A stretch of DNA of 64,000 nt from NCBI RefSeq assembly GCF_030684315.1, contig NC_081391.1, positions 21,412,629 to 21,476,628 of the forward strand, given 5' to 3'. Shown here one piece after another: positions 339 to 64,000 of the stretch (its first letter is position 1; every line of letters starts with the position of its first letter). A program made the position numbers and the translations under genes. This DNA is from Stegostoma tigrinum. Its lineage: Eukaryota. Under the pieces are notes generated by a model. It saw only the letters and a list, made by a program, of their open reading frames with translations, did not search any database and was not told where the DNA came from.

Positions 339-560
339 CCAATCACAGAATAACCATCCAGACCTGGCTCTCATCTCCACCTCTGATCAGCTCTGCTTAA
401 CACACCCTCCCCCTCTCTCTCATTGGTGCCTCTATGCATGGGTGGCTCCTGATTGGCTAGCAGCAACTGTCAGTCATCATCAGTTCTGCCTCTCTCTGTG
501 TGACTGCAGGATGGTCCCAGGACTATAAATACAAGAGCCTGTGGGAGAGAGAGACTTAGT
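339..560 (+). promoter_or_regulatory. Ferritin copy 1 proximal promoter (CCAAT 339-343, CACCC ~403, reverse CCAAT 422-426 and 452-456, TATAAATA 524-531, Inr-like TTAGTT ~556)
   Basis: Motifs read directly. The block recurs upstream of copies 3, 5, 6, 7, 8 and 10 (TATA altered in 5 and 7). Confidence 0.75.
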
Positions 561-600
561 TCTAGAGTTTTCTTGGTGCTTGTGAGCAGGAATAGTGAAG

Positions 601-2996
<2,396 letters not shown>

Positions 2997-3064: not shown

Positions 3065-3070
3065 ATTAAA
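3065..3070 (+). terminator. Putative polyadenylation signal ATTAAA of copy 1
   Basis: ATTAAA ~70 nt after the stop. Conserved at the equivalent position in 8 of 10 copies. Confidence 0.6.
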
Positions 3071-6906: not shown

Positions 6907-8116
<1,210 letters not shown>

Positions 8117-12000: not shown

Positions 12001-12523
12001 ACAGCTGACACTGTTACAATTTTCTATGACCCAGAGACAATTTCCCAACTTTCTTTCCCAAATCCCAGCATAACAAGCTGAGAAACTGATGCCCCTCTTC
12101 CTCATTGAATCCCTCATGCAGTTGCTCACAACCACCTTAATTAAAAAAAATGTGAAAACTTTTCTCAAACCAAATTGACTTATTTTAAAAAAGAACCAAA
12201 TAACACACGACCTGAGTGAGTGGTGCAGAAGGTTTGAGATGCTGAATGGCCTCTTGCTGTTCCAATCACAGAATAACCATCCAGACCTGGCTCTCATCTC
12301 CACCTCTGATCAGCTCTGCTTAACACACCCTCCCCCTCTCTCTCATTGGTGCCTGTATGCATGGGTGGTTCCTGATTGGCCACCAGCAACTGTCAGTCAT
12401 CATCAGTTCTGCCTCTCTCTGTGTGACTGCAGGATGGTCCCAGGACTATAAATACAAGAGCCTGTGGGAGAGAGAGACTTAGTTCTAGAGTTTTCTTGGT
12501 GCTTGTGAGCAGGAATAGTGAAG

Positions 12524-14787
12524 ATGGTTTCCCAAGTGTGTCAGAACTACCACAAGGACTGTGAGGATGCTGTTAACAAGCAGATCAACCTGGAGCTCTA
12601 TTCCTCCTATGTTTACCTCTCCCTGGTGAGCTTTGTGGAATTGAAGCCTGTGCTATGATAGTGTTGACCTGTTTGGTTTTTATGCTGGGTTAATGAATTA
12701 GCTGTAACATGTATTATTTTCTGTGGCCCTTCCCCTGTTGCAATCTAGTGCAGGTCTTATCACTGACTCTCTGTTCAAAACTTGACCACTGTCTTCATGT
12801 CCAACTGGCTCCTGGATGTGGATGCCCAGCTTGCTGTCTCTGGACAATGTAACCCTTGGTGATTTTTTTCATCTAACTCTGGAGGGATGATCTGGTCTTG
12901 GTCAATAATTAATTTTTGTAAAACTTTGGTTGTATTCCTTTTCTCAACAAAAGCTTTTCCTGACACAAATATACTCCTTTTTTAAAACCTTGCCCTATTC
13001 ACCGGACTGTCTTGTGCTCAAGATGTCAAGTTCCCTGAACTAAAAGAACAGCTGCTGCTAGACATTAAACACTAACAAAAATAGCTAGAAAAGCTCTACA
13101 GAGCTGGAAGAAATCCAAGCTCTGGGTCCATTGACCCTTTCTCAGAAGTGGCTTTGAGCTATGCAATGTGAGGAAAGGGGCACATTTTCAGACTATGTAT
13201 GTGTTTTTTTTTCTTTCTCTCTAACAAAGCAGTTAAAATTCTGTGGAGTGGGTGGTAGGACACTGCGGTTATTCAGGTGGGTGATAGTGATAATGAGACT
13301 GCTGACTGAGCTTTCTGGTTGTGTTAATGAACACATGTCCCTTCATTCAGTTGGACAGGGGCCGAACTGGTCTCCACCTCCTGAACAATAGTGTTTCTAA
13401 CCTGCAGAGCAGGGATGTCTAATGGCTCTAGACAGCTCTCCCCTTCATCATCCATGGAAGGTGACTTCCTGCTTTGTCTGTTTTTTTAACCACTTAAATG
13501 TGGAATCCAGATGGTGCCCAGGTTAGTTCCAGAGTGAGGAGTGTCATTCATGAATTTCAGACAGTTTCCTTTTAGCCTCTCTCTTCCCACAGTTCTCTTA
13601 CTTTGACCGGGATGATGTTGCCCTGCATCACTTTGCTGAGTTCTTCAAGGAGCAGTCCCATGAGGAACGGGAACACGCTGAGAAACTGATGGCATTCCAG
13701 AATAAACGTGGAGGTCGAGTCATCCTGCAGGACATCAAGGTTAGATTCTGAAGCCTTCTGTTTGCAGCTTTTTGTGAGCAGCTACAATCGACTGGTATCT
13801 CCATCTATTTAGCTTTAGCCTTGAACAAATACTGTGTGAAGGGGAGGGTGTTCACCAAAATAGGATTCCTTTAGGTTGAAAGGAAATACTCTGCACTTAT
13901 GAGGAACCAGAATAGTGAGTAGATATCAATGTGAATGACTCTCCTTCAGACAGAATGAGGTAACAAAAGCTAAGACAGGAAATTGTTGCACTGTGGAAAG
14001 TAGCAGTGTCCAGCCTTTCTGAATCTGGAAGATGTTTCTAACACCACAATAGTGAAGCCAGGAACTACTTCCATTGGTACCTATTCTCTACATGTGAATT
14101 CTGAGAATCTACATTAACAGTAGAATGTGTTTAGAAAATTTGTTATTCCCTCAGTACAAAATCTAGTTGTTGTCTTCAAATTCAAGTTGGTTTGCAGTAC
14201 CTCCCCTACAATGATGAGGGATAACTAACTGATCAGATGTAGACTAATGATACAACTGCCTGCTGAACTGTGCTTTCTGTTCCTGCTTCCCTCCCTCCAG
14301 AAGCCAGAGCAGGATGAGTGGGGCAGTGGTCTGGAGGCAATGCAGAGAGCTCTGCAGATGGAGAAGGATGTGAACCAGAGTCTGCTGGATCTGCACAAAC
14401 TCGCCTCTGGCCACACTGACCCTCATGTGAGTTTGTAAACTTTCTTCTTGGAAGAAAGTGGTGTGTTTGTGCACTCTCTGGGTAAAAATCCAATTACCTT
14501 CTCCCAGCCTCCTGCAGGCTGGTAAAACAAACTTACAAATGCATCACCTCAGTGGACCTCCACCTGGTTGTGATGGTCACATCTGTCATGGGGGTCACTT
14601 TCAGACACTTTTGATCCTCTGGATTAATTTTCTCTTCCAGCTGTGTGACTTCCTGGAGAGGCAATACTTGGATGAGCAAGTGAAGATGATCAAGAAGCTG
14701 GGAGATCACATCACCAACCTGAAGAGACTGGGAGCCCCTGACAATGGCATGGGAGAGTACCTGTTTGACAGGCTCACACTCGGCTGA
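12524..14787 (+). CDS. Ferritin heavy/middle-type subunit, copy 3 (intact); exons 12524-12625, 13593-13739, 14301-14426, 14641-14787
   Basis: TATAAATA 12447-12454, canonical splice sites and open frame. Variants M34L, ERQY and C-terminal LTLG. Confidence 0.94.
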
Positions 14788-18007: not shown

Positions 18008-19214
18008 AACATAAAAGATTAATGCATTTTGGTTGAGAAACATAGAAAGACAAAACAGGCTCGATGTTACAAATCTGAGGTGAGTACGGGAGCAGAGGGA
18101 CTTTGGGTTTCAAGTATGTGATTATCTGAAAGTGGCCGAGCGGGACTAACCTGCTGTGAAGAAGGCTTTTGTGAAATGTGTGTTTTCAAATAGATGCGGA
18201 GAGTATAAAAGCGAGGAATAGATGTTACACCTCCACAAATCATGGGTTAGACCACATTTGCAGTACTGTGTTCAGTTCTGGGCATGGTATTTAAGGAAGG
18301 ACATTAAAGCCCTCGACAGAGTTCAAAGGGCATTTACGAGAATGACACCAGGAATGAGGGATTTTAGATACAAGGAAAGATGAAGGAAATTGGGATAAAT
18401 CTCCTTGAAGCATAGTTGATTAAGAGGTGTCCCCGTTGAAGTGACAAAAATAATGAACATTCTGTCAGGGTAAAGGAGGATATCCTGTTTTCACCAGTTG
18501 ATACGGCAGTGATGAGGGGTCACAATTTGTCAGTAAGGGAGCTCTGAGATGAGGACAAACCTCTCTATTCAGAAGGTTGTTAGGATTTGGAATCTGATGC
18601 CTGGGAGAGTGGCGGAGGTAGATCCCATAGGTGGCTTCAAAACAAGAGCTGGATATATACTTGGGAGTGACGAATATAGAGGGTATAGGGCTGGAGAGGG
18701 GGACTAGGTGGGTAGCTCTTTCGGAAGCCGATACGGACATGATGGGCTGAATGGCCTCTGTCGTTAAAAATCCTCTGAATGTCCACCCAGGAACTTTTGT
18801 AAATTTTGGGTTTGTATTCCTCTCAGTCTTAAATGTCCAACCCAGTCCTCTTACATCAGGATACCCTGATCCTGGACTCCCCCATCATTGGGAACATCCT
18901 TCCTGTCCTTGCCCCGTCTGATCCTGTCACAGTTTTCTATGACCCAGAGCCAATTTGCCACCTTTCTGTCTCATATCCCAGCACAACAGGCTGAGAAACT
19001 GACACCTCTTCTTCATTGACTTCCTCGTGCAGTTTGTCACAACCACCTTAATTTAGAAACAAAATGTTAAAGCTTTTTTCAATTGCCAGTCATCATCAGT
19101 TCTGCCCTTCTCTGTGTCAGTGCGGGATGGCCCCCAGGAGTATAAATACAGAGCTTGTCGGGGAGCAACTCAGTTCTAGGGTGGTCTTGGTTTTAATGAA
19201 CAAGGCTAGTGATG

Positions 19215-21624
19215 ATGGCCTCCCAAGCGTGTCAGAACTACCACAAGGACTGTGAGGATGCTGTGAACAAACAGATCAACCTGGAGCTTTATTCCTCCTA
19301 TGTTTACCTCTCCATGGTGAGACTTGTGATCTTGAATGGTCTATTTCAGTGTTAGGGCTGTGATATGATTGTACTGATCCTTTAAGTGGCTTCTTGCTCA
19401 ATGATTTAGTACTACCATATATCTTGTCTGTTGTCCTTCCTGGAATGAATCCTGTGAGTGCTCTTAATGCTAATTCTGTCGCAATTTTAAGCTTGTCTTG
19501 TGTTGGAGCTGGCTCTTGTCTAGGAGTCCCCAGTATGTTGTAATTCTGGGCAGAGCACATTTTTGGTGCTGAGGGATGGCCTGGTTCTGCTTCTTAATTC
19601 AACTCCTCCTTCCATGTTGATATCAATGGCCCATTTATATTTGAAATCATTTACATCCTTGTGGAAGCTTGCATCAGTCCAAATCTAACTTTTTATATCT
19701 TGTCCTTTTAATGAAGCCTTTTTTTTAATAAACATCCTAACTGTGATTAACTACTGGAAATAAAAGACTAAAATGAGCTGCTGGAAAAGCTTAGTGGGTC
19801 TGGTAGGATCTGTGGTGAGAAATCAGTTCCTGTTTTTGGTCCAGTGACCTTTCCTTCATGGTTTTTAGTTGCTACTTATGAGGAGCAGACTTTTTCCACT
19901 CCCAAGATGGATTATCTGGAACAAAAATCAGTCACTGTCTCTTGTGCAGATGAGGTGTTAGGACAGTGGGGCTAAATCAGATGAGTGATGTTGGTAATGT
20001 GAGGAGCTCAGATTTCAGCTTCTCTTGGTCAACATGCACATGTCCCTTCGTTCTGTTGGACAATGCCCTGATTGGCTTCCAGCACTGGGTAATAGTGTTT
20101 CTGACCTGCAGTGCAGGGATGTCTAATGCCTGTTGCCAGCTGTGACCGTCACCGTGCACTGTCTCACCAAGTCACCGACCAGGGGTTGTAGCGGGTGCTA
20201 CTTAATCTTTATTTCTAGATGTTTGAACAAATGTCTGTCTAGTTTAGTTTATGGATGACCATAAATGTAAATACCTGTCTTCTTACTGTCCATCTAACTT
20301 CCATTTCGTGAGCAAAACCAAGCTGAATTGAGTGAAATTTACTTCCCATTTTGTCTGTTTGCAGTTCTCTCTCTTTGACCGGGATGATGTTGCCCTCCAT
20401 CACTTTGCTGAGTTCTTCAAGGAGCAGTCCCATGAGGAGCGGGAACACGCTGAGAAACTGATGGCATTCCAGAATAAACGTGGAGGCTGAGTCCTCCTGC
20501 AGGACATCAAGGTTGGATTCTGAGAATGTCTGTCTGTTTGCAGCTTTTTGAGCAGCTACAATCGACTGGTATCTCCATCTATTTAGCTTCAGGATTGATC
20601 AAATACTATGTCAAGGGCAAGTTGTTCACCAAAACAGGATTTGTTTAGGGAAAAGGGAAATACTTTGCATTTGTGACTCAATAGCAGAAGGCAATTCAGA
20701 TGATCCAGGCTACTGGATGGTGAGCACATGTCCCTGTATGTGACTCTATATGGACAAGGTGAGGTAACAAAAGGTAAGGCTGAGAACTTGCAGCTACAAA
20801 AAGCAGCAGCATCCAACCTCACTACATCCAGAAGAGGTTTGTAATGCCTTGGGACCATTCTGGTCACTACATCAAACAGTAAAGCAAGGGATTACTTCCA
20901 TTGCGACTGATTCTAGATACGACTTCTTTCAGAATTCACAGTAACAGTGAGATATGTTAACATTTCTTTATTCTCAGACCAGCATAAAATCTAGAGGGTT
21001 TTTGTATCCAAGTAAAATTTTTTGTCTGAATGTAACCCCTGGAAATGATGAGGGATAACTAACTGATCAGATGTAGACTAATGATACAACTGCCTGCTGA
21101 GCTGTGCTTTCTGTTCCTGCTTCCCTCGCTTCAGAAGCCAGAGCAGGATGAGTGCAGCAATGGTCTGGAGGTGATGCAGAGAGCTCTGCAGATGGAGAAG
21201 GATGTGAACCAGAGTCTGCTGGATCTGCACAAACTTGCCTCTGACCACATAGACCCTCATGTGAGGTTTTATCCCTTTCCTGGTAGAAAGTGATCTGTTT
21301 GTGTACTTCCAGGGTGGGGAATCCAATTATTTTTCTACCTGCCTCCTGCAGGATGTTTAAACAAAACCTTGTGAAGGCATCACTTGCATGCCCCTCCCCC
21401 ATAGGGAGGTGATGGTCACTTCTGTCATGGGAGGTCACTGACATTTTTTGATCCTTGTTGGATTAATTTTGTCTTCCAGCTGTGATTTCATGGAGAGGCA
21501 CTACTTGGATAAGTAAGTGAAGATGATCAAGAAGCTGGGAGATCACATCACCAACCTGAAGAGACTGGGAGCCCCTGACAATGGCATGGGAGAGTACCTG
21601 TTTGACAGGTTCTCACTCAGCTGA
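19215..21624 (+). pseudogene. Ferritin copy 4, pseudogene; exons 19215-19316, 20365-20511, 21135-21260, 21480-21624
   Basis: CGA>TGA stop at 20488-20490. 2-bp deletion at the start of exon 4 (CTGTGATTTC). CAA>TAA in the DEQ motif and W>C in exon 3. CCAAT region of the promoter deleted. Confidence 0.93.
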
Positions 21625-24012: not shown

Positions 24013-25204
24013 CAAGCATGTGGATGAGGGAAGGGCAGTTGACGTGGTGTACATGGACTTCAGTAAAGCCTTTGATAAGGTTCCACATGGTAGGCTATTG
24101 GAGAAAATACAGAGGCACAGGATTGAGGGAGATTTAGCAGTTTGGATTAGAAACTGGCTTTCTGTAAGAAGGCAACGAGTGGTGGTTGATGGAAAATATC
24201 CAGCCTGGAGTCAGGTCACTCGTAGTGTGCCTCAAGGATCTGCTTTAGGACCACTGCTGTTTGTCATTTTTATAAATGACTTGGACGCAGGCATAGGTGG
24301 ATGGGTTAGTAAGTTTGCAGATGACACTAAAGTCGGTGGAGTGGTGGACGGTGTGGAAGAATGTTGCACGTTGCAGGGAGACTTGGATAAACTGCAGAAT
24401 TGGGCTGAAAGGTGGCAAATGGAGTTCAATGCAGATAAATGTGAGTTGATTCAATTTTGGGTGAATAACAGGAAGGCAGAATACTGGGTCAATGGAAAGA
24501 TTCTTGGCAGTGCGGATGTGCAGATGGATCTTGGTGTCCATGTACATAGATCCCTGAAAGTTGTCACCCAGATTGATAATGCTGATAAGAAGGCTTACCG
24601 TGTGTTAGGTTTTATTGGTAGAGGGATTGAGTTCCGGAGCCGTGATGTCATGCTGCAACTGTACAAAACGCTAGTGCGGCCTCATTTGGAATATTGCGTG
24701 CAGTTCTGGTCACCCCGTTACAGGAAGGATGTGGAAGCATTGGGAAAGGTGCAGAGGAGATTTACCAGGATGTTGCCTGGTCTGGAGCGCAGGCCCTATG
24801 AAGAAACGCTGAGGGACTTGGATCTGTTCTCATTGGAGAGAAGTAGGCTAAGAGGGGATTTAATAGAGACATACAAGATGATCAGAGGATTAGATAGGGT
24901 GGACAGTGAGAGTCTTTTTCCGAGGATGATGACTTCAACTTGTACAAGGGGGCATAGCTACAAATTGCAGGGTGATACATTTAAGACATTTGTCAGAGGC
25001 AGGTTCTTTGCTCAGAGAGTGGTAAGGGCGTGGAAAGCCCTGCCTGCCAATGTAGTTAACTCAGCCACGTTAGGGGCACTTAAACAGTCCTTGGATAAGC
25101 ATATGGATGGTGACGTGATTGTGTAGGAGGTGGGGCTTGGATTAGCTCACAGGTCGGCGCAACATCGAGGGCCGAAGGGCCCGTTCTGCGCTGTATTGTT
25201 CTAT
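24013..25204 (+). mobile_element. 5'-truncated CR1-clade LINE with an uninterrupted 368-aa RT ORF (24020-25126); independent insertion
   Basis: DVVYMDFSKAFDKVPH, PQGS.LGPLLF and FADDTK motifs, TGTTCTAT tail. Interrupts the spacer motif GTGAACC|TTGTGTTTTC seen intact at ~10441. Confidence 0.93.
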
Positions 25205-27318
25205 GAGCCTTGTGTTTTCAAATTGAGGCATCGAGCATAAAAGCAAGGAATTGATGATACCCCTCTACAACTCATTGGTTAGACCACATTTGCAGTGATG
25301 TGCTCAGTTCTGGGCGTGGCTTTTCAGGAAGGGCATTCAAGCCCTGGACAGAGTTCAAAGGTGATTTATAATAATGACACCTGGAATGGGGAATTTCAGA
25401 CACACGGAAAGATTAAAGAAATTGCGCTTATTCTCCTTGGAGCAAGAAGCACTTGTTGAAGTGATCAAAATTATCACCAATTCTGTCAGGGTAAAGGGGG
25501 ATATTCTGTTTTCACCAGTGGATACGTTACTGACGAGGGGTCACAATTTGTCAGTGAGGGAGCTCACAGTGAGAGGAGGAGAAACCTCTTCACTCAGAAA
25601 GTTGGTAGGGTTTGGTATGCGTAGCTGACAGGAGTGATGGACGCAGATTCCACAGGTGGCTTCAGAAAAGCAGCTGTATACATATATGGAAGTGGCAAAT
25701 TTAGAGGGATACAGACATAGGGCTGGAGAGTGGGGCTGCGTGTGGAATGCTTTCAGAAACTGAATCAGGCACGATGGGCCAAATGGCCTCCTATCATTAA
25801 AAATCCTCTGCATGTTCCCCCAGGAAATTCTCAGAGTTTGGAGAGGGGCTTTGTACTCCTCTCAGTGGGCACCTGTACAAGGCACATTTAATGTGGGAAA
25901 GCTGTTACACATCAGCAGAGACATGGTCCTTTACACAAGGTAGACCCAGTTCCACTGGCAAAGAAATGTTGACTGGGGATCCCCCCACTGCTGACCTTCA
26001 CCCACCGTCACAGCCAACGATAGCACACGCCTATCTTCCACCTGGATGGCCGTTGGGAACTTGTTTTGCATTGCACTTTACCAGGACCCTCCCCTCGATC
26101 GTACCATCCTGGGTGGCCCTGCCAGGAGGTGAAATCCTCTTCAGGTATCACTCTCAGAACCAACAGAACACTCGAGGCTCTCCATCACTGCGTGGTGACA
26201 ATCCACAGGCAGGAGCTGGAGGCAGGGAGATGCTGCTCAGGTACAGACCCATCACAAAATCGGAGAATTGTTGTGGCACAGCAGGCGGCCATTCGGTCCT
26301 TTGTGCCTGCACCTGTTCTGGTTGTTTTCTAATTCTGCCTGTAGAGATGTTACAAAATCTCTGGATCTGGTATGGACTTGGACCAAGGCTTCCTGGTCCA
26401 CAGCTAGGGACATTACCCCTGCATCACAATACCCTGGCTGCACTGGTTGTACAAACTTAGAATCATCGAAAAAAAATTGTTGGATTCGGCCATTCAGCCC
26501 CCTCCAGACTGCTCTGCCATTCCATGTGATTGTGGCTGATTCCATAACTCAGTCCCATCTTCCCACTCTCTCACCATACTCTTTGATCCCTTCAGCCCTC
26601 AAAGCTGCACCCAACTGCTCCTGGAAAACATTCAAAGTTTTGGCCTCAAATGTTTTCTGTGGCAGAGAATTCCACAGGACCCCCACTCTCTCGGTGAAGA
26701 GATTTCTCCTCATCTCAGTCCTAAATGTGTACTTAGGCTGTGACCCCTGATCCTGAACTTTTCCATCATCAGGAACATCCTTCCTGTCTTTTCCACAGCT
26801 GACACTATGACAATTTTCGATGACCCCGAGCCAATTTCCCACCTTTCTTTCCCAAATCCCAGCACAACAGGCTGAGAAACTGACACTCCCCTTCCTCAAT
26901 GAGTCCCTTCTGCAGTTGATCACAACCACCATAATTTAAAAACAAAACGAGCAATCTTTTTTCAAACCATATTTACTTCTTTTAAAAAAGAACCAAATAA
27001 CACACGACCTGATTGAGTGGTGCAGAAGGTTTGAGATGCCGAATGGCCTCCTGCTGTTCCAATCACAGAATAACCATCCAGACCTGGCTCTCATCTCCAC
27101 CTCTGATCAGCTCTGCTTAACACACCCTCCCCCTCTCTCTCATTGGTGCCTACATCCAAGGGTCATTCCTGATTGGCCAGCAGCAACTGTCAGTCATCAT
27201 CAGTTCGGTCTCCCTCTGGGTGAGTGCCGGTTGTCTCAGGAGTAGAAACACAACAGCTTTGGGGATTGAGGCCTTTGTTCCAGAGTTGTCCTTGTGATTG
27301 TGAGCAGGAATAGTGAAG

Positions 27319-29700
<2,382 letters not shown>

Positions 29701-32700
29701 ATGGGGTCAATAATGTGTATGTTGTACATGGTGACATAATGCTAGTAACTCGGTTGTGCTGAGCAAATCAAAATAGTGTTCACCATGGAACTGAGTACTT
29801 TGCCTAATTTCACAGCTGCTTCTGGCTCTTGGTATTGCTGTTTGCACATCTGATCATTAAATCCTTTTCTGTTACTTCTGATTAACCTTTAATTCAATGC
29901 CTGCCCCAGTAGTTTGCTCCTCTTTTGTCGGTACGAATTCAGTCAGCAATCAATGTAGTGGAAATCCCACAAGTGTTCGGGTTTTTTTGTCAGTACAACA
30001 CTGTTTACTAGCCAAACAACTTTTCAGGACCAGCTTCTAGTCAATAGGCAGGGGACTGGTCTCAGTCAAGCTAAGTGTTGGGAACTGAACTGGAGCCCTG
30101 CCCTGTGCAATGTTCAGGTCTCATTGGAATAAGCAGCTGCAGGAAATCTCAGGTTTGGCTGCACCTGGGGGAAGAACTGTTCAGTCCTAGGACCTGAGAC
30201 ACATTATCATCTCCTGACAGATGTTGCCACACCTGTGACTTTTTCTAGCACTTGGAGTCTAATGATTTGAGCATACATTCACTTTTCAAACAAGAATATA
30301 AAGTAAAAAAAATTTAGCCTGGAAGATGCACTGATCTCTTTAGCAATTGCTTATCTACAAAGGATACAAGTGGTTTCGCTCCCATTTCCTTTGCTCCTTT
30401 ATCACTGGTGGAAGGAGTGAGTCTCATGGCTGCCTGTAAGAGAATGAGAAAACTTGTTTTCACTTGTCTCAGGCTCTCACGCGTGCACTCGCCAGAGAGA
30501 ATGACCTGTTAGTCAAGGCAGCAGTGCCCATCTTGGAGCAGGTGTGGCACAACTTCTCAGTGCTCTGCAACGTAAAGATTACATAGGCTAAGAACACCAG
30601 GTGAAAGTAAAGTTAGAACCCAAATACCATGAGGAGAAATCAGCAGTTCCAATCTTTAGCTCTTTATTTTCAATGAAATCAGCTCTCCTGCTCTCAACTG
30701 ACCTGCATGTGCCAGCACATGCACTGCTCTGTGCCTGCCTTGTTCCTGATGTTCAGGGGTGACAGTCTCCTCTATTAAAAGGATGTGGATGTCTCTGAGC
30801 TGACTGCATTTATTATCCATTTCAAATTGCCACAAGGCCAGGTCAGAGGTGCACACATCGCTGTGCTTGCAGGGTCATATGCAGGCCAGGCTCGGTAAGG
30901 ATGGGTTTTTGACACTGAATTGAATGCTCCTCATTACCTTCTTAATTCCAGAGCGGTGTCAGATAGAATCAGGAGATCAGGCCAACACTCCAGAAACTTG
31001 ATGGCCTCCAGCTCCAAGCAATGATTGTCAAGCTCATTATTAGGTTCTTATTGCCAGAAGAGAGTTGTTCAGACAGAATCAGGTCAACGGGTATCGGTCC
31101 AACACGCCAGGAGCTTAAGAGCCTCCAGCTCAGAGCAGCCGCGAGATTCATTCTTTCCGCCACTGACACACAGGGACTACAATATGTGCCGTCTAACAAA
31201 TGCTGTAGAAATCCACCAAATCTTCTTAGACAACACCTTCCAAAGCCCCCATTCATCCAGTGTTGGTGGATCAAAATGCTGCCATTGCCTCACCAGGAGC
31301 ATTGAGGATCTGCCTCCACTAAATCAACAACAGTTCAAGAAGGCAAGCCACCACATTCGCGAATCTAATGTTAGGCCTGATCTCGGACCAGTTCAAATAT
31401 CTCAGCGTGGAGGTTCTTTTGTTCTAGTTCAAACATATCTGGAGTGCACAGTTCGAGCAGGTTGGACGCAAAGATCGTTATGAACAGAATTTCTGGAATG
31501 CCCCCGGACAGAAAGTTAATTGGTTACGATGATAATACTTTGCCCAAGCCCCTCTGTGTAGAAGTGTAAAGGACGTCTGTGCTTCAAGTTTCAAAGTGGA
31601 TTAATGCATTTGACAGGGTACATAGAGAGATCCTGCTTCTTTTCAATCCTCATCTAGGACTAAGAGTGGGGAATATGATTACAATCCTCGCATTAGAAGT
31701 AAATCATCTATGATAAAGCCAAAAACAGCTTCGTTTTGGAAAGGATAATATGTGAATCAGCAGATACATTTTTATTTGGTCAGATTTGATGTTGCCAATT
31801 GCTTTCCAATTTGAACATAAAAGATGAATGCATTTTGCTTGAACAAACGTAGAAAGACAAAACAGGCTCGATGTTTCAATTCTGAGGCGAGTACAAGAGC
31901 AGAGGGACTTTGGGTTTCAAGTATGTGATTACTGGAAAGTGGCTGAGCGGGATAAAGCTGCTATGAGAAGGCTTTTGTGAAATGTGTGTTTTCAAATGGA
32001 CGCAGAGAGTATAAAAGCGAGGAATAGATGTTACACCTGTACAAATCATGGGTTAGACCACATGTGCAGTGTTGTGTTCAGTTCTGGGCATGGTATTTAA
32101 GGAAGGACATTGAAGCCCTCGACAGAGTTCAAAGGGCATTTACGAGAATAACACCAGGAATGAGGTATTTCAGATACAAGGAAAGATGGAAGAAATTGGG
32201 GTAAATCTCCTTGGAGCATAAATGTTTAAGAGGTGACCCTGTTGAAGTGATCAAAATAATGAACAATTCTGTCAGGGTAAAGGAGGATATTCTGTTTTCA
32301 CCAGTTGATTATGGCAGTAATGAGGGGTCACAGTTTGTCAGTAATGGAGCTCTGAGATGAGAACAAACCTCTCTATTCAGAAGGTTGTTAGGATTTGGAA
32401 TGTGATGCCTGGGAGAGTGGCGGAGGTAGATCCCATAGGTGGCTTCAAAACAAGAACTGGATATATACTTGGAAGTGACGAATATAGAGGGTATAGGGCT
32501 GGAGAGGGGGCCTAGGTGGGTAGCTCTTTCGGAAGCCGATACGGACATGATGGGATGAATGGCCTCTGTCATTAAAAATCCTCTGAATGTCCACCCAGGA
32601 ACTTTTGTAAATTTTGGGTTTGTATTCTTCTCAGTCTTAAATGTCCAACCCAGTCCTCTTACATCAGGATACCCTGATCCTGGACTTCCCCCCCCCCATT

Positions 32701-33024: not shown

Positions 33025-33329
33025 CAAATGACCCATGACCTGATTGAGTGGAGCAACAGGTTTGAGATGCTGAATGGCCTCCTGCTGTTCCAATCACAGA
33101 ATAACCATCCAGACCTGATTATCATCTCCACCTGTGATCAGCTCTGCTTAACACACCCACCCCCTCTCTCTCATTGGTGCCTGTATGCATGGGTGGTTCC
33201 TGATTGGCTAGCAGCAATTGTCAGTCATCATCAGTTCTGCCTCTCCATGGGTGAGTGCAGGATGGTCCCAGGACTATAAATACAGAGCCTGTGGAAGAGC
33301 AACTCACTTCTTGAGTGGGAATAGTGAAG

Positions 33330-36260
<2,931 letters not shown>

Positions 36261-39200: not shown

Positions 39201-40576
39201 GACCCAGTTCCACTGGCAAAGAAATGTTGACTGGGGATCCCCCCACTGCTGACCTTCACCCACTGTCACAGCCAACGATAGCACACGCCTATCTTCCACC
39301 TGGATGGCCGTTGGGAACTTGTTTTGCATTGCACTTTACCAGGACCCTCCCCTCGATCGTACCGTCCTGGGTGGCCCTGCCAGGAGGTGAAATCCACTTC
39401 AGGTATCACTCTGAGAACCAACAGAACACTCGAGGCTCTCCATCACTGCGTGGTGACAATCCACAGGCAGGAGCTGGAGGCAGGGAGATGCTGCTCAGGT
39501 ACAGACCCATCACAGAATCGGAGAATTGTTGTGGCACAGCAGGCAGCCATTCGGTCCTTTGTGCCTGCACCTGTTCTGGTTGTTTTCTAATTCTGCCTGT
39601 CGAGATGTTACAAAATCTCTGGATCTGGTATGGACTTGGACCAAGGCTTCCTGGTCCACAGCTAGGGACATTACCCCTGCATCACAATACCCTGGCTGCA
39701 CTGGTTGTACAAACTTAGAATCATCGAAAAAAAATTGTTGTATTCGGCCATTCAGCCCCCTCCAGACTGCTCTGCCATTCCATGTGATTGTGGCTGATCC
39801 CCTAACTCAGTCCCATCTTCCCACTCTCTCTCCATACTCTTTGATCCCTTCAGCCCTCAAAGCTACACCCAACTGCTCCTGGAAAACATTCAAAGTTTTG
39901 GCCTCAAATGTTTTCTGTGGCAGAGAATTCCACAGGACCCCCACTCTCTCGGTGAAGAGATTTCTCCTCATCTCAGTCCTAAATGTGTCCTTAGGCTGTG
40001 ACCCCTGATCCTAAACTTTTCCATCATCAGGAACATCCTTCCTGTCTTTTCCACAGCTGACACTATGACAATTTTCGATGACCCCGAGCCAATTTCCCAC
40101 CTTTCTTTCCCAAATCCCAGCACAACAGGCTGAGAAACTGACACTCCCCTTCCTCAATGAGTCCCTTGTGCAGTTGATCACAACCACCATAATTTAAAAA
40201 CAAAACGAGCAATCTTTTCTCAAACCATATTTACTTCTTTTAAAAAAGAACCAAATGACGTATGACCTGATTGAGTGGTGCAGAAGGTTTGAGATGCCGA
40301 ATGGCCTCCTGCTGTTCCAATCACAGAATAACCATCCAGACCTGGCTCTCATCTCCACCTCTGATCAGCTCTGCTTAACACACCCTCCCCCTCTCTCTAA
40401 TTGGTGCCTCTATGCATGGGTGGCTCCTGATTGGCTAGCAGCAACTGTCAGTCATCATCAGTTCGGTCTCCCTCTGGGTGAGTGCCGGTTGTCTCAGGAG
40501 TAGAAACACAACAGCTTTGGGGATTGAGGCCTTTGTTCCAGAGTTGTCCTTGTGACTGTGAGCAGGAATAGTGAAG

Positions 40577-42967
<2,391 letters not shown>

Positions 42968-45900: not shown

Positions 45901-47384
45901 TGAATTTCCACCCAGGAAATTCTGAGAGTTTGGGGACGGGGTTTGAATTCCACCTCTGGAAGGCACCTTTAATGTGGGAAAGCTGTTACACATCAGCAGA
46001 GACATGGTCCTTTACACAAGGTAGACCCAGTTCCACTGGCAAAGAAATGTTGAACTGGGGATCCCCCCACTGCTGGGCAACACCCACTGTCACAGCCAAC
46101 GATCGCACACCCCTATCTTCCACCTGGATGGCCGCTGGGGACTGGTTTTGCATTGCACCTTATCAGGACCCTCCCCTCGATCGTACCGTCCAGGGTGGCC
46201 CTGCTAGGAGGTGAAATCCTCTTCAGGTATCCCTCTCAGAACCAACAGAACACTCGAGGCTCTCCATCACTGCGAGGTGACAATCCACAGGCAGGAGCTG
46301 GAGGCAGGGAGATTCTGCTCAGGTACAGACCCACCACAGAATCGGAGAATTGTTATGGCACAGCAGGAGGCCATTCGGTTCTTTGTGCCTGTACCTGTTC
46401 TGGTTGTTTTCTAAATCTGCCTGTAGAGCTGATTTAAGATCTCTGGATCTGGTAGGAACTTGTACCAAGGCCTCCTGGTCCAAAGCTAGGGACATTACCC
46501 CTAAACCACAAGACCCTAGCTGCGCTGGTTGCAGAAACATAGAATCATAGAAAAGAAATGTTGAGTCGGCCATTCATCCCCTGTAGCCTGCTCTGCCATT
46601 CCATGTGATTGTGGCTGATTCCATAACTCAGCACCATATTCTCACCCTCTCTGCAATCCCTTTTGATCCAGCCCTCAAAGCTCTCCCCAATTCCTGTTTT
46701 GGCTTCAATCCTTTTCTGTGGCAGAGAATTCCACAGGTTCCACCACCCCGCCCCCCGAGGTGAAGAGATTTCTCCTCACCTCAGTCCTAAATGTATCCTT
46801 AGATTGCAAACCCTGGTCCTGAACTCCCCCATAATCAGGAACATCCTTCCTGTCTTTTCCACAGCTGACACTGTTACAATTTTCTATGACCCAGAGACAA
46901 TTTCCCACCCTTCTTTCCCAAATCCCAGCACAACAAGCTGAGAAACTGATGCCCCTCTTCCTCATTGAATCCCTCGTGCATTTGGTCACAACCACCTGAA
47001 TTTTAAAAAAATGTGAAAACTTTTTTCAAACCAAATCGACTTCTTTCAGAAAAGAACCAAATGACCCATGACCTGATTGAGTGGTACAGAAGGTTTGAGA
47101 TGCCGAATGGCCTCCTACTGTTCCAATCACAGAATAACCATCCAGACCTGGCTCTCATCTCCACCTCTGATCAGCTCTGCTTAACACACCCTCCCCCTCT
47201 CTCTCATTGGTGCCTGCATCCATGGGTGGTTCCTGATTGGCCACCAGCAACTGTCAGTCATCATCAGTTCTGCCTCTCTCTGTGTGACTGCAGGATGGTC
47301 CCAGGACTATAAATACAAGAGCCTGTGGGAGAGAGAGACTTAGTTCTAGAGTTTTCTTGGTGCTTGTGAGCAGGAATAGTGAAG

Positions 47385-49831
<2,447 letters not shown>

Positions 49832-50326: not shown

Positions 50327-51283
50327 CAGGCCCAGCAGCATCTCAGGGGCACAAAAGCTGACGTTTCGGGCCTAGACCCTTCATCAGAGAGTGGGATGGG
50401 GAGAGGGAACGGGAATAAACGGGGAGAGGGAACGGGAATAAACAGGGAGAGAGGGGGAGGTGGACCGAAGATGGAGAGTCAAGAAGATAGGTGGGGAGGG
50501 GATAGGTCAGTCCAGGGAAGACAGACAGATCAAGGAGGTGGGATGAGGTTAGTAGGTAGATAGGGGTGCGGCTTGGGGTGGGAGGAAGGGATGGGTGAGT
50601 GGAAGAACCGGTTAGGGAGGCAGAGACAGGTTCGACTGGTTTTTGGATGCAGTGGGTGGGGGGGAAGAGCTGGGCTGGTTGTGTGGTGCAGTGGGGGGAG
50701 GGGACGAACTGGGCTGGTTTAGGGATGCAGTAGGGGAAGGGGAGATTTTGAAACTGGTGAAGTCCACATTGATACCATATGGCTGCAGGGTTCCCAGAGG
50801 GAATATGAGTTGCTGTTCCTGCAACCTTCGGGTGGCATCATTGTGGCACTGCAGGAGGCCCGTGCTGGACATGTCATCTAGAGAATGGGAGGGGGAGTGG
50901 AAACGGTTTGCGACTGGGAGGTGCAGTTGTTTGTTGCGAACTGAGCGGAGGTGTTCTGCAAAGCGGTCTCCAAGCCTCCGCTTGGTTTCCCCAATGTAGA
51001 GGAAGGCACACCGGGTACAGTGGGTGCAGTATACCACATTGGCAGATGTGCAGGTGAACCTCTGCTTCATGTGGAATGTCATCTTGGGGCCTGGGATAGG
51101 GGTGAGGGAGGAGGTGTGGGGACAGGTGTAGCATTTCCTGCGGTTGCAGGGGAAGGTGCCAGGTGTGGTGGGGTTGGAGGGCAGTGTGGAGCGAACAAGG
51201 GAGTCACGGAGAGAGTGGTCTCTCCGGAAAGCAGACAGGGGTGGGGATGGAAAAATGTCTTGGGTGGTGGGGTCGGATTGTAA

Positions 51284-51288: not shown

Positions 51289-53675
<2,387 letters not shown>

Positions 53676-56600: not shown

Positions 56601-57393
56601 GTTTGTATTCCTCTCAGTCTTAAATGTCCAACCCAGTCCTCTTACATCAGGATACTCTGATCCTGGACTTCCCCCCCCCCATTGGGAACATCCTTCCTGT
56701 CCTTGCCCTGTCTGATCCTGTCACAGTTTTCTATGACCCAGAGTCAATTTCCCACCTTTCTGTCTCATATCCCAGCACAACAGGCTGAGAAACTGACACC
56801 TCTTCTTCATTGACTTCCTCATGCAGTTTGTCACAACCACCTTAATTTAGAAACAAAATGTTAAAGCTTTTTTCAAACCAAATGCAGTTCTTTTTAAAAA
56901 AGAGCCAAATAAGTTATGAAGAAGCATCCAGACCTGAAACATCAGCTTTTCTGTTCCTCTGATGCTGCCTGACCTGCTGTGTTCATCCAGCTCAACACCT
57001 TGTTATACAAATGACCCATGACCCATGACCCATGACCTGATTGAGTGGGACAGCAGGTTTGAGATGCTGAATGGCCTCCTGCTGTTCCAATCACAGAATA
57101 ACCATCCAGACCTGATTATGATCTCCACCTGTGATCAGCTCTGCTTAACACACCCACCCCCTCTCTCTCATTGGTGCCTGTATGCATGGGTGGTTCCTGA
57201 TTGGCTAGCAGCAACTGTCAGTCATCATCAGTTCTGCCTCTCCATGGGTGAGTGCAGGATGGCCCCAGGAGTATAAATACAGAGCTTGTGGAAGAGCAAC
57301 TCACTTCTTGAGTGGTTTTGGTTTTAGTGAGTGGGAATAGTGAAGATGGTCTCCCAAGTGTGTCAGAACTACCACAAGAACTGTGAAGAGCGA

Positions 57394-57450
57394 TAGGGTT
57401 AGGGTTAGGGTTAGGGTTAGGGTTAGGGTTAGGGTTAGGGTTAGGGTTAG
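57394..57450 (+). repeat. Interstitial telomeric repeat TAGGG(TTAGGG)8TTAG
   Basis: Perfect 57-bp array read directly. Confidence 0.98.
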
Positions 57451-58532
57451 ACACATCCCTCACACCCCGCCCCCAAGAGGATCCCCCTCGTTCTCACACA
57501 CCACCCCACCAACCTCTGGATACAACGCATTATCCTCCGACACTTCTGCCATTTACAATCCGACCCCACCACCCAAGACATTTTTCCATCCCCTCCCCTG
57601 TCTGCTTTCCGGAGAGACCACTCTCTCCGTGACTCCCTTGTTCGCTCCACACTGCCCTCCAACCCCACCACACCTGGTACCTTCCCCTGCAACTGCAGGA
57701 AATGCTACACTTGTCCCCACACCTCCTCCCTCACCCCCATCCCAGGCCCCAAGATGACATTCTACATTAAGCAGAGGTTCACCTGCACATCTGCCAATGT
57801 GGTATACTGCATCCACTGTCCCCGGTGCGGCTTCCTCTACATTGGGGAAACCAAGCGGAGGCTTGGGGACCGCTTTGCAAAACACCTCCGCTCAGTTCGC
57901 AACAAACAACTGCACCTCCCAGTCGCAAACCATTTCCACTCCCCCTCCCATTCTCTTGATGACATGTCCATCATGGGCCTCCTGTACTGCCACAATGATG
58001 CCACCCGAAGGTTGCAGGAACAGCAACTCATATTCCGCCTGGGAACCCTGCAGCCATATGGTATCAATGTGGACTTCACCAGTTTCAAAATCTCCCCTTC
58101 CCCCACTGCATCCCTAAACCAGCCCAGTTCATCCCCTCCCCCCACTGCACCACACAACCAGCCCAGCTCTTCCCCCCCCCACCCACTGCATCCCAAAACC
58201 AGTCCAACCTGTCTCTGCCTCCCTAACCGGTTCTTCCTCTCACCCATCCCTTCCTCCCACCCCAAGCCGCACCCCCCACTACCTACTAACCTCATCCCAC
58301 CTCCTTGACCTGTCCGTCTTCCCTGGACTGACCTATCCCCTCCCTACCTCCCCACCTACACCCTCTCCACCTATCTTCTTTACTCTCCATCTTCGGTCCG
58401 CCTCCCCCTCTCTCCCTATTTATTCCAGTTCCCTCCCCCCATCTGATGAAGGGTCTAGGCCCGAAACGTCAGCTTTTGTGCTCCTGAGATGCTGCTTGGC
58501 CTGCTGTGTTCATCCAGCCTCACATTTTATTA
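57451..58532 (+). mobile_element. 5'-truncated Penelope-like element (GIY-YIG endonuclease ORF 57754-58308; Neptune-like)
   Basis: CNCRKCYTC linker and VVYCIHCPRCGFLYIGETKRRLGDRF motif, C-rich 3' UTR. 16-bp TSD ACAAG[A/G]ACTGTGAAGA at 57374-57389 and 58533-58548. Confidence 0.93.
58443..58470 (+). ncRNA. Minimal hammerhead ribozyme core in the Penelope 3' region
   Basis: CTGATGA-AGGGTCTAGGCCC-GAAACGTC. Minimal hammerheads are an established feature of Penelope-like elements. Confidence 0.6.
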
Positions 58533-61057
58533 ACAAGGACTGTGAAGATGCTGTTAACAATCAGATCAACCTGGAGCTCTATTCCTCTTATGTTTACCTC
58601 TCCATGGTGAGCCTTCTGACATTGAAGACCTGACCTCAAATTGAAGCCTGTGATATATTTGCATTGACTCTCTTAGGTTTATTTTCTTGCCTAGTTTCAT
58701 GATTTAGTTGTAGCATGTGTTTTGGTCTGTGGCCCTTCCCTGACTGAATCCCAGTGAAATGGTTCACACTGACTCTGTTGGAAACTTGAAGTTTGTCTTG
58801 TATTGCAACTGACTCCTGGGTGACAATGGCCACTTTGTTATCTCTGGACAATGTACTCCTTAGTGACTTTTCTCCTTCCTCTGAAGGGATGAGCTGATGT
58901 TGCTGATAAACCTATATTTTCCTTAAATTTGGTTACAATTTTCTTTTAAAGAGAAGATTTCCCTGGTGAATATTTCTATGCAAAATGTACTTGCACTCTT
59001 AAAACTTTGCCCCATTCACCAGGCTGCTCTGGTCTGAAATAGTTCTCTTCTAAAAGAAAAGCAACTGCTGGAAATTAGAAACAGCAACAAAAATAGCTGG
59101 AATAGCTTTACAGATCTGGCAGGATTTAGAGAAATCAGTTCATGTTTTGGGTCCAGTGACTCTTCCCCAAAAGTCCTCTGTCTATTCAGTAGGAAGATAG
59201 ACAAGTGTGGCATGTTTTCATACTCCAAATCTGAATTACAGAAAAAGAAACCAGTTAGAACTCAGTGCTGAGTCGATGGTAGGACAGAGTGGGGTTATTC
59301 AGGTGGGTGATGTTTGTAATGCTGGCGTTCACCATGATTCATGGCTCTGTCCATCCACGTGCTCTTTCATTCAGTGCTGCGTCCTTGATCGGCTGGTTGT
59401 GTGTCCTCTCTTTCTTCTATAATCCATGGGAGAAGACCTTCTGCCTGTCTATCATGTTCCAGTAATTAAATGTCCAGTTCTGGTTGCCATACTAACAAAA
59501 GGATGTGAATGCTTTGGAAGGGGGTGCAGAGGAGGTTCACCAGGATGTTGCCTGGTATGGAGGGTGTGAGCTACGAAGAAAGGTTGAGTAGATGAGCATT
59601 ATTTTCATTAGAAGGTGGCAGATTTGGGGGTGGGGTCCTGATTGAGCTCCTCAAATTCATGAGGGGTGTAGACAAGGTGGATAGCAAGAAGCTTTTTCCT
59701 TGAGTGGGGAACTCAATTACTAGGGGTCATGAGCTCAAAGTAAGAGCAGGGAAGATTGGGTGAGATTCCTTTCAGTGTGGAAACAGGCCCTTTAGCTCAG
59801 TGCACACTGGCCCTTGAAGCATCCCACCCAGACCCATTTCCCCTATAACCCCCATACCACTGAATGCTACAGGCAATTTATCATGTGGATATATTTGGAA
59901 AGCTCTTTACACAGGTTGGAGGGTGCCTGGCACACACTGCCTGTGGAGGTGGTAGACGCAGTCACACTAGTGTCTTAAGATCTATCTGGACAGGTACATG
60001 GATGGGCAGGGAGCAAAGGGATACAGCCCCTTTGAAAATAGATGACCGATTTGAGACCAGATGTCGCTCGGTGCAGTGTTGGAGGGTCAAAGCCTGCTCC
60101 TGTGCTCCAGCTCTTTTGTCATTAAATGTGGAATCAAGATGGTGACTGGGTTAGTTTCTGATTGAGGAGTGCCATTGAATTTCAGATACATTTCCCTTTC
60201 CTGCCTGTTTCTTCCCCCACAGTTCTCTTACTTTGACCGGGATGATGTTGCCCTGCGTCACTTTGCTGAGTTCTTCAAGGAGCAGTCCCATGAGGAGCGA
60301 GAACATGCTGAGAAGCTGATCATATTCCAGAATAAACGTGGAGGTCGTGTCCTTCTGCAGGACATCAAGGTTGGATTCAATTTTTTCAGCTCAATACACT
60401 GGACTGATATCTCAATATGATCAGGTTCAGGATTAGACAAATACTGTATGAATGGGAGGTTGCTCAGCACAATATGATTTCCTTCACTAAAAGGAAACAC
60501 TTTTGCACTTGTGATTGAACAACAGTTGGCAATTGTGATCATCCTTTATTCTGGATGGTGAGCACATATCGGTGTCTACCGTTGCTTTGGACAAGATGAG
60601 GTGTCAAAAGGGAAAACAGAAATCTTTCAGGTGTGGAAAGCATCAGTATGAAGCCTTTATACTTCAAGGATGTTTCTGATGCCTTGAGATCATTCTGATC
60701 ACAGCATAGCAGGATTTATTTAGAAATGTCCCCCTTCAAGAACAGTACCAAATACAGCATGTGTTTTGCCAAGGTCAAGTTGGCCTGTAGTACCTCCCCT
60801 ACAATGATGAGGGATGACTAACTGATCAGATGTAGACTAATGATACAACTGCCTGCTGAGCTGTGCTTTCTGTTCCTGCTTCCCTCCCTCCAGAAGCCAG
60901 AGCAGGATGAGTGGGGCAATGGTCTGGAGGTAATGCAGAGAGCTCTGCAGATGGAGAAGGATGTGAACCAGAGTCTGCTGGATCTGCACAAACTGGCCTC
61001 TGGCCACACGGACCCTCATGTGAGTGTGGTGTATTTAAATCTGGGTTTTTTGAATAA

Positions 61058-61414
<357 letters not shown>

Positions 61415-64000
61415 TGAATGGGGTCAATATCTATATCTGTTGTACATGGTGACCTCATTCTACTAAATGACTAGTTGTGCTCTGAGCAAATTAAAATAGT
61501 GTTCACCATGGAATTGAGTACAGTGTGTAATTTCCATAGCTTCTGGTTCTTGGAGGTTTTTGTGCTGTCATGTCTGATCATCAATCCTTTGTTCTTTGTG
61601 ACATCCTTTGATTCAATGCCTGCCCCAGTAACTTGCTCAGTGTTTGATTCTGCTGTGTCTGGGGATTGAGTGGGCAATCCTTTTATTGGAAATTCCATAA
61701 CTGGTAAGGTTGTTGACAGATAAGTCAGCATTACTGACATCTACTCGCAGGGACAAGTTTGCAGGACCAGCTTCCAATCAATGCACTGACTGAAATCAGT
61801 CCTTTGCCTAAAGGGTAGGCACTGATCTAATGCACTGCCCTTGGTCATGTGTTTGGGTCTCTTTTTAAATAAGCAGATTCTGGAAACCAGGAGCAAAACC
61901 TGCTGGGAAATCTCAGGTTTGGCAGCATTGGGAGGGAGCAGGGTTGAACAGAACCTGGCCATGAGACACGTGATCATCTCTTGTTTGATTTTGTTGCCTG
62001 ACAGTGAGGTGTTTACCAGCAATTTGTTCTGATGCCTTGGTGTTACTCATTTTCGTAAATCGTAAAATTCCTCCTCCAAAGAGTTAGATAGAATGCTTTT
62101 CCGCAGTTTTTTTCTTTGACATAAGCAATTGCTTATTGCACTCTTCCCTGAGCTAGGGAATTAGTTTCTTCAGTACCTCCTTCTTACATGTCAGAGAAAG
62201 GAAACATCTACCTTGTCTTACAATGCTAAAGATGAGGAACTGCGTTGGGAATGAAGCAGTGCCCCCCTTGTTGCCTGTGTGATAATTTCTATTATTACCC
62301 TGCAACGAAGAGGTGACAAATACTGAGGATGCTTGGTGCAAAATCAAGCTAAAATGCAAAGAGCATGTGCAGAAATCAGCAGTTTCAATTTTCAAGCAGA
62401 TCAGATCGCCTGCTGTCGACTGGCTGATCTGTGACTCCACACAGTGCACTGTGGGGGCCTAATCACTATCAATCAGTCCTGAATTACAATGTGACTGCTT
62501 TGTGTAAGGGCTTTAACAGGATCAGGATATCACTGACGGGCAGCATTTATTATCCAGCTCTGATTACCCACCCAGCCCATGAGTCATTCAAATTAAACCC
62601 CTTTGCTGTGGCCGTGGGGTTACACATAAGCCAGAGCAGGTAAGGATGGCAGTTTCTTACAAACAAGGACATTAGTGAACTAGAAGAGGCTTGTTTGCAC
62701 CATCACTTCTGGAATGAGAATGATGTGCAGGAAATTCAGTGATGTCAGACAGAATCAGGAAAACAGGTAGCAGTCTAACACTCCAGAATGTTGACAGCCT
62801 CCAGCAAACGAGCAGCCACTTTAGTCAATCCTTCCACCACTGACATATGCAGAGACTGCAATATATACCATCTACCAAATGCTGTAGGAATCCACCAAAG
62901 CTCCTCAGACAACTTCTTAAAACCGTAACTACTTTCCATCGGACAAGGGCCGCAGAAATGTGGGAACACCACGCATCTCCACGTTCTACACTAAGCCACT
63001 GCTCATCTGGCGTTGGAAACATAGCCCACATTCCCTCCCTAACAGCAGTATGGCTTTGCCTACACCAAATGGGCAACAGTAACGCAAGAAGGAAAGTCAC
63101 CACGTTCTCGAAACTAATGTTAGCCCTGATCTCTGAGGGGTTCAAATACCTCTGGATGGAGAGGTTTTGGTGAAATTGTCAAGTTCCTGTTCAACCACAG
63201 CCGGAGTGCACAGTTCTGGCAGGTACGACCCCAACAATGGTCATGCACAGAATTTCTGGAAGTAACCTGGACAGAGAGATGGTTAATTCATCATAATGGC
63301 TTGTCCAGTCCCTCTGTGTAGAAGGTTAAGGGATGGCTGTAACTGATATTGTTCAGAGGACTAACGGATTTGACAGGGTAGAGAGGAAAGAACCCATTTC
63401 TTCTCAATGATCATCTCGGACTGTGCGGAGAATGGGATGACAATCTTCACATGAGAACTACATCATCCAGGATCACGTCAAAAACAGTTACTTTGTGGAA
63501 AGGACAACATTTGCACGCACAGATATTTACTGCACAAGGCTTGATGTTGCCAATCACTTTCCAATTTCAAGACATAAAAAAAAGTGAGTCATGCATTTTT
63601 GTCCAAGAAACACAGAAAGACAAAACAGGCTTGATGTTACAAATCTGATGTGAGTACAGGAGCTCAGAAGCTTTCGGTTTCAAGTATGCGATTATCTGAA
63701 AGTGGTCAGGCAGGATGAAGCTGTTATTAATGGAGATTGAGCCACCTATGTGAACCTTGTGTTTTCAAATTGAGGCATCGAGAATAAAAGCAATGAATTG
63801 ATATTGCACCTGTACAAATCATTAGTTAGACCACATTTCCATTATGTACTCAGTTCTGGGCATGGCATTCAAGGCACGACATGAAAAACCTCAAAAGAGT
63901 TCAAAGGAGATTTATTAGAATGACCCCAGGAATGAGGAATTTTAGATACACAGAAAGATGAAGGAAAATGGGCTAAATCTCCTTCCAGGTGACCTTGTTG

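Follow-up and report, generated by a model that had tools for sequence, protein, structure and literature searches.

In vertebrates, the mRNAs of the cytosolic H and L ferritins carry a conserved iron-responsive element (IRE) within their 5' leader that is bound by IRP1/2, and their translation is set by iron. The element, as laid out in the available part of PMC8466369, is about 30 nt long and is defined by a CAGUG(H) loop, a C14-G18 pair, an AGU triplet, a bulged C8 and an upper helix of 5 bp, features also described in the accessible text of 10.1101/524991. A 5' IRE counts as a hallmark of the mRNAs of vertebrate cytosolic ferritins; each of the five salmon isoforms, H (H1/H2) and M (M1-M3), carries one, and its presence has been used to separate real ferritin genes from pseudogenes (PMC4117605). 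Point mutations in the IRE of a single ferritin gene cause human disease (PMC8466369, available part).

Specialised ferritins that lack an IRE have been described in several settings. Mitochondrial ferritin (FTMT) is IRE-less and stress-induced (PMC13010531 and PMC7760355, in the sections available); FTMT and FTHL17 both show restricted, partly germ-line expression, and mouse Fthl17 is a six-gene family. The sponge proteins HdF2 and EmF2 are atypical IRE-less ferritins, each a minor paralogue next to IRE-bearing main genes, with divergent sequences and no predicted iron binding (PMC8395497, available sections). In the snails Lymnaea and Biomphalaria, an IRE-less yolk ferritin linked to the egg exists beside soma ferritins of the IRE type; it is made in the digestive gland and secreted, and has a signal peptide and a 42-aa insert (PMC10799875, available sections).

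Sharks provide the closest described gene arrangement. According to the portion of 10.1101/2024.09.09.611499 at hand, the Greenland and great white sharks have more than 100 ferritin copies in shared FTL/FTH1 clusters that have been kept since their split ~250 Myr ago, with more than 85% of the copies full-length, and the largest cluster is ovary-specific. The available sections of PMC13214024 name the expanded gene FTH1b, report clusters of up to 59 or more copies, some of them 5'-truncated, place FTH1a and FTL on another chromosome than the FTH1b cluster, and describe some FTH1b copies as transcribed in fin and blood of the Greenland shark, for which a link to ferroptosis was proposed. The term 'IRE' is absent from the main text and five supplement files of PMC13214024, as is the word 'iron' from the available text of 10.1101/2024.09.09.611499.

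The 64-kb window considered here (the whole stretch of DNA that was analysed) holds an array of ten ferritin copies that is like these clusters, as far as the accessible parts of the two sources describe them, in having a host that looks to be a shark, in having many head-to-tail copies, some 5'-truncated, and in encoding the full ferritin domain; it differs in that IRE status goes unmentioned there. With vertebrate FTH1 and FTL and the teleost M chains the array shares four exons, the ferroxidase residues, the E54/E61 pair of M chains and the lack of a targeting peptide, but those genes have a 5' IRE in a leader that for FTH1 averages 245 nt (PMC8466369, available part), whereas the leaders predicted here are of 24-43 nt and contain none. 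FTMT, although IRE-less like the array, is an intronless mitochondrial retrogene, and FTHL17 has lost ferroxidase activity, as far as the sources at hand describe them; the array retains its ferroxidase residues and three introns, the latter unlike a retrogene of the FTMT type. The sponge paralogues share with it the missing IRE, but the array is conserved at the ferroxidase centre. Snail yolk ferritin, as portrayed in the available text, is the closest model for how the array may work, both being IRE-less, though the array shows neither signal peptide nor insert. The array works like other IRE-less specialised ferritins without belonging to those families.

Neither shark ferritin arrays nor IRE-less ferritins as such are new, but for shark clusters the lack of the element seems to be unreported: a literature search that took in few subscription journals, and most papers only by title and the opening of the abstract, listed none in which a ferritin cluster of a shark or fish had lost its IRE, the available parts of PMC6312339, PMC4256280, PMC9224801 and 10.1101/2020.05.01.071498 contain nothing on whether the copies of fish or sharks carry one, and an intron-containing, ferroxidase-intact, amplified IRE-less vertebrate ferritin was not found in the literature searched.

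The gene array and its products

Exon searches locate the ten copies head-to-tail on the + strand in the interval 524-61417 (~61 kb), and the window contains only these copies and repeats. Exon searches and translation by coordinates give a layout of four exons and three introns. Copy 1 (601..2996; exons 601-702, 1821-1967, 2498-2623 and 2850-2996) is intact, encodes 173 amino acids and is followed by ATTAAA, a candidate poly(A) signal, at 3065..3070; its splice pattern recurs in contigs from related organisms, which are considered below. By translation, frames with normal splice sites are also intact in copies 3 (12447..14787), 5 (27243..29700), 6 (33275..36260) and 8 (47308..49831). The remaining five are broken. 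Copy 2 (6907..8116) has exons 2-4 only, with promoter and exon 1 missing and the exon-2 acceptor lost; copy 4 (19141..21624), a pseudogene, is interrupted by two stops and no longer has its exon-4 acceptor; copy 7 (40501..42967) contains a stop in exon 2; copy 9 (51290..53675) is 5'-truncated, without promoter and ATG, and its intron-3 donor is out of register; and in copy 10 (57272..61417) exon 1 is split by an insertion (57390-58532) with a 16-nt target duplication. Since half of the copies are broken, the effective dosage is below ten. The promoter region is kept in eight of the ten, being absent from copies 2 and 9, and four combine an intact frame with a TATA box.

Position 57 of the product is His (Arg in copy 8), a residue that we take to be H-like. 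All five intact copies have the ferroxidase residues E24, E58, E59, H62, E104 and Q138 (salmon numbering) and the nucleation residues E54 and E61, which match the description of the salmon M chain (PMC4117605). By inspection, the 173-aa product has no N-terminal extension, signal or leader peptide, or insert. Because the ferroxidase centre is complete and a leader peptide is absent, the product should be an active cytosolic ferritin. E54 and E61 would also suit an M/L class; the tandem multi-copy arrangement and the 5'-truncated members (copies 2 and 9) are features of FTH1b-type clusters, and it is quite likely that the array is the shark FTH1b cluster.

The copy 10 insertion opens with eight TTAGGG repeats (57399-57446), a run that the window has nowhere else, and encloses a frame (57754-58308) that presumably encodes a GIY-YIG endonuclease of a Penelope-type element; a similar frame (50612-51082) is located just 5' of the truncated copy 9. 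A LINE frame at 24053-25123 has its best named vertebrate matches in carpet sharks (Chiloscyllium, Stegostoma; 64%), with rays at 49-57% and birds and turtles at 51% or less, which points indirectly to a shark as the host, and its closer matches (70-74%) include records labelled Klebsiella pneumoniae and Proteus mirabilis, which are probably vertebrate DNA in bacterial records. Intron 2 of all ten copies contains a conserved block (2410-2466 in copy 1) with the C/D-box-like series ATGATGA, CTGA, ATGATA, CTGA, ending ~33 nt before exon 3. Its alignment has 88% mean column identity, and eight of the ten copies give weak matches to Rfam sR1 (best 31.4 bits against a gathering score of 45). The block may be an intronic snoRNA, or, as it overlaps the likely branch region, may merely reflect splice signals or conversion tracts.

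Core promoters, predicted leaders and the search for an IRE

The TATA box TATAAATA occurs six times on the + strand of the whole window and not once on the - strand, each time 55-77 nt 5' of a ferritin ATG. In copy 1 it lies at 524..531 and is followed by the initiator-like TTAGTTC (556..562, a YYANWYY match), which puts the predicted start at the A at 558 and gives a predicted leader of 43 nt (558..600) without an IRE. A reading made earlier from the letters alone (below, the sequence-only reading) had put the initiator A of copies 4, 6 and 10 at 31 nt past the first T of their TATA box, and this is confirmed, with TCAGTT in copy 4 (TATA 19141, initiator A 19172, ATG 19215) and TCACTT in copies 6 (33275, 33306, 33330) and 10 (57272, 57303, 57346). 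Of the three copies that it cited, all of which have the motifs, only copy 6 is intact, copy 4 being a pseudogene and copy 10 being disrupted by its insertion; the interval to which it attached the claim, 524..603, belongs to copy 1, whose initiator A is at +34. The same spacing is found in copies 3 (TATA 12447, predicted start 12481, ATG 12524) and 8 (47308, 47342, 47385), where, as in copy 1, TTAGTTC is the sole YYANWYY match. The predicted leaders are 43 nt long in copies 1, 3, 4, 8 and 10, that of copy 3 being exactly that of copy 1, and 24 nt long in copy 6, in agreement with the ~24-43 nt given before; the copy 6 leader equals that of copy 10 less 19 nt between 7-nt direct repeats. In copies 5 (27243, ATG 27319) and 7 (40501, ATG 40577), TAGAAACA replaces the TATA box and the expected place is without an initiator. 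Copy 5 has both of the CCAAT boxes described below and an intact frame, yet with TATA box and initiator mutated it may be silent or start elsewhere.

Among the 22 TATAWAWR sites on the two strands, the six ferritin promoters are the only ones followed by an initiator A at +28..+35; none of the other 16 sites has one, and the background level is 7.5% of positions. As the six promoters are homologous copies, this amounts to one or two ancestral events rather than six. Further upstream, copy 1 has a pair of inverted CCAAT boxes (ATTGG), one at 422 and the other 30 nt further on at 452, and a GGGTGG box at 440, all within 422..456 on the + strand. Both inverted CCAAT boxes recur at the same places in copies 3, 5, 6, 8 and 10, such that in six of the eight promoters they lie 102 and 72 nt 5' of the TATA position; copy 7 has one and copy 4 none there. 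In zebrafish, oocyte-specific tandem zp genes are driven by CCAAT boxes. Motif scans of the 500 nt upstream of all eight promoters found no consensus for ARE, AP-1, kappaB or HRE, and an MRE-like site only in copies 6 and 10. In the intact copies the start codon has a strong context, with A at -3 and G at +4.

The sequence-only reading had also stated that no CAGTGN-loop hairpin lies between TATA and ATG, and indeed CAGTG is missing from this interval in all eight promoter-bearing copies; within 600 nt 5' of the ATG it occurs in just one of the eight (copy 4, upstream of its TATA box). Rfam gave no match at gathering score over the 64 kb, and at E<=10 no IRE family (RF00037, RF02253) was among the 13 matches, the weakest of which scored 17.5 bits, whereas a comparable model, that of PMC8466369, gives verified ferritin IREs scores of 22.9-33.8 bits. 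On shorter stretches, neither the four Rfam matches in 240-710 nor the one in 57280-57350 was an IRE. The + strand contains 88 CAGTGH loops, of which 13 show the C8 and none passes a test for the 5-bp helix that tolerates up to one mismatch and two G-U pairs; on the - strand two of 92 pass (16494 and 37313), both antisense to the ferritin genes. Looser criteria yield six IRE-like sites on the + strand with at most one mismatch, against 1.2 expected from shuffles, two of the six being duplicates. Those at 32067 and 56049 were rejected because they need four G-U pairs and have no fold with a 6-nt loop, and those at 50385, 23536, 31131 and 55112 because they have CAGAG loops and are distant from any ATG. 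We also considered an IRE remnant in copies 6 and 10, where the first 13 leader bases resemble by eye the 5' arm and loop end of the FTL IRE with ~7 nt missing, but the resemblance is not shared by copies 1, 4 and 5, no Rfam IRE match falls there, and the idea is not supported.

Length by itself excludes an IRE only in copy 6, whose 24-nt leader is shorter than the ~30 nt of the element. In the zebrafish the FTH1 IRE occupies nt 3-37 of the leader (PMC8466369, available part), so a leader of 43 nt could accommodate one, and its exclusion from the other copies is a matter of sequence. Taken together, uncoupling from canonical IRE/IRP translational control, as the sequence-only reading proposed, is well supported by the Rfam and CAGTG scans, and the leaders are very probably not bound by IRP.

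Could translation still be controlled by iron, by way of a hairpin of non-canonical type or of some other RNA-binding protein? The leaders can form hairpins, and copies 5 and 7 contain a CAGAGT, but the folds are weak (-3.5 to -10.4 kcal/mol), differ in shape by copy class and lack what the available part of PMC8466369 finds to be required, namely the C8, the AGU loop and a helix of 5 bp. The 24 nt of the copy 6 leader would again be too few for the ~30 nt of an IRE. Moreover, the leader diverges about as fast as the introns: between TATA and ATG, copy 1 is 73-79% identical to copies 4, 5, 7 and 10, which is about the intron level and unlike a constrained IRE. We therefore regard such control as very unlikely.

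Upstream DNA and the contigs of relatives

A different way to rescue iron control would be for the TATA box and initiator not to be the true start, the mRNAs acquiring an IRE from transcription that begins further upstream or from a first exon that is non-coding. IREs are indeed present in each of the five salmon isoforms, H and M, and the 250 nt before the TATA box are conserved almost to the level of exons, as a leader might be: copies 1 and 6 are 93% identical there, as compared to 96% in coding sequence and 79-80% in introns 1-2. An acceptor-like CAG with a pyrimidine tract, 91 nt 5' of the ATG in copies 1, 3 and 8, could in principle receive such an exon, but it is not called in the other five of the eight copies, including the intact copy 6. 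The sense strand of the whole window is without an IRE and, while only 523 nt upstream of copy 1 are in the window, for copies 3, 5, 6 and 8 the 3.6-5.6 kb back to the stop of the previous gene lie entirely inside it. As all of this intergenic DNA was scanned, an IRE exon belonging to each unit is excluded at the sensitivity of the scans, and what would be required is a shared exon outside the window that is spliced to every unit.

Contigs from related organisms bear on the same point. In two of four runs (X1 and X5, the runs being guessed to be RNA), a spliced contig ~97% alike matches 582-702 unbroken and continues with exons 2-4. The X1 and X5 contigs differ from the window in 18 of 524 and 15 of 529 letters, respectively; a contig in run X7 that starts at 607 differs in 15 of 499. 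Because the X1 and X5 contigs match 582-702 in one piece, the last 19 bases of the predicted leader (582-600) are continuous with coding sequence in these relatives, and the contigs cross both an acceptor-like site at -11 and the ATG without a splice. Considering all of this, an IRE supplied from upstream seems highly improbable. Since calling the runs RNA is no more than a guess, the contigs could be retrocopies. They diverge from the window at 2986, with a different C-terminus and 3' UTR and 154-163 further letters, and may represent a sister paralogue; the window copies all end about three codons earlier than the contigs do (in copy 1, 2986-2996).

We do not use the contig ends as start sites: those of X1 and X5 lie 28 and 22 nt 5' of the ATG, respectively, that of X1 has a 9-nt loose end, and assembled contigs cannot show a start. 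Positions 421-525 are without coverage in the relatives' runs. In run X2 exon 1 is uncovered, and run X7 has, by depth arithmetic, ~40 extra covered bases in the bin 526-630. The runs of the relatives contain more distant ferritin contigs as well (for example, X1 record 3, with 11 other letters in 58). Codon 6 (616 in the window) is Cys in every copy that has it; X5 reads Arg, and X1 and X7 match the window.

Divergence between copies and possible use of the family

The loss of the IRE, as the sequences present it, is older than the split of the oldest copy classes in the array, because both old classes lack the element. The absence would have little meaning if the array were a birth-and-death cluster, homogenised by recombination, in which a weakly expressed IRE-less ancestor happened to be amplified. 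Half of the copies are broken, two of the eight promoters have lost the TATA box and mobile elements have inserted, all of which suit such a history, and gene conversion could explain the high identity of promoters and exons. The identities in the array fit selection and gene conversion alike. Mosaic copies are also seen, copy 7 having a 5' part like that of copies 1 and 5 and a 3' part like that of copy 6, and copy 8 changing class near exon 3, pointing to unequal crossing-over or gene conversion. Recent copy pairs, between which there are few changes, have pN/pS values of 0.51-0.68, which fit drift as well; among the older intact copies 1, 5 and 6, however, pN/pS is 0.12-0.19. Counting further against mere turnover are the ~97% alike spliced contigs of three related organisms and the retention of shark clusters, more than 85% full-length, across a split of ~250 Myr (10.1101/2024.09.09.611499, portion at hand). 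We thus consider an accidental amplification unlikely.

The reading that we favour, and hold to be probable, is that the array represents part of a tandem ferritin cluster of a shark, an IRP-independent family under transcriptional and dosage control that is possibly used for oocyte iron loading. In this scheme, a compact promoter of paired CCAAT boxes, TATA box and initiator would start transcription at the predicted sites 24-43 nt before a strong start codon. A leader without an IRE would offer no canonical IRP1/2 site, such that low iron could not block translation, and ferritin output would then follow transcription and the number of intact copies. Ferritin made unchecked would be expected to deplete cytosolic iron, and restriction to a tissue or stage might be anticipated; the purpose could be a supply of ferritin, in a particular tissue, that precedes cytosolic iron or takes no account of it, iron-sensing housekeeping being left to separate FTH1a and FTL genes. 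Both control by transcription and dosage and a non-housekeeping role had been put forward in the sequence-only reading; by analogy, they are indirectly backed by the published shark clusters, with their ovary-specific expression and with FTH1a and FTL located elsewhere.

The main rival to oocyte loading is a family that is equally IRE-less and functional but has a somatic role, in protection from oxidative stress, ferroptosis or infection. Precedents are the stress-induced, IRE-less mitochondrial ferritin of the accessible sources cited above, and the FTH1b copies transcribed in Greenland shark fin and blood, for which the available sections of PMC13214024 propose a ferroptosis link. All eight promoters, however, are without ARE, AP-1, kappaB and HRE consensus sites over 500 nt, with just copies 6 and 10 having an MRE-like site, and the other Greenland shark study reports, in its available portion, that the largest cluster is ovary-specific (10.1101/2024.09.09.611499). 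A somatic stress role seems to us possible but rather improbable, and oocyte iron loading is the likeliest single use, if at slightly less than an even chance.

It is tempting to extend oocyte loading to the whole shark FTH1b lineage, with its tens to more than 100 copies per genome: the IRE would have been lost earlier than the divergence of the major shark groups, and a ferritin that is independent of IRP and catalytically intact would have been amplified to load iron into large oocytes. We offer this only tentatively. If true, the lineage would be a vertebrate counterpart of snail yolk ferritin, and the expansion in the Greenland shark would be mainly reproductive rather than a trait of longevity or ferroptosis. 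More generally, a family that is amplified, intact and IRE-less would deprive the cytosol of iron with no feedback, and should be confined to a tissue or stage where this is wanted. The missing IRE makes the purpose of the many shark ferritin copies directly testable, and bears on the reading of the Greenland shark expansion that links ferroptosis to longevity.
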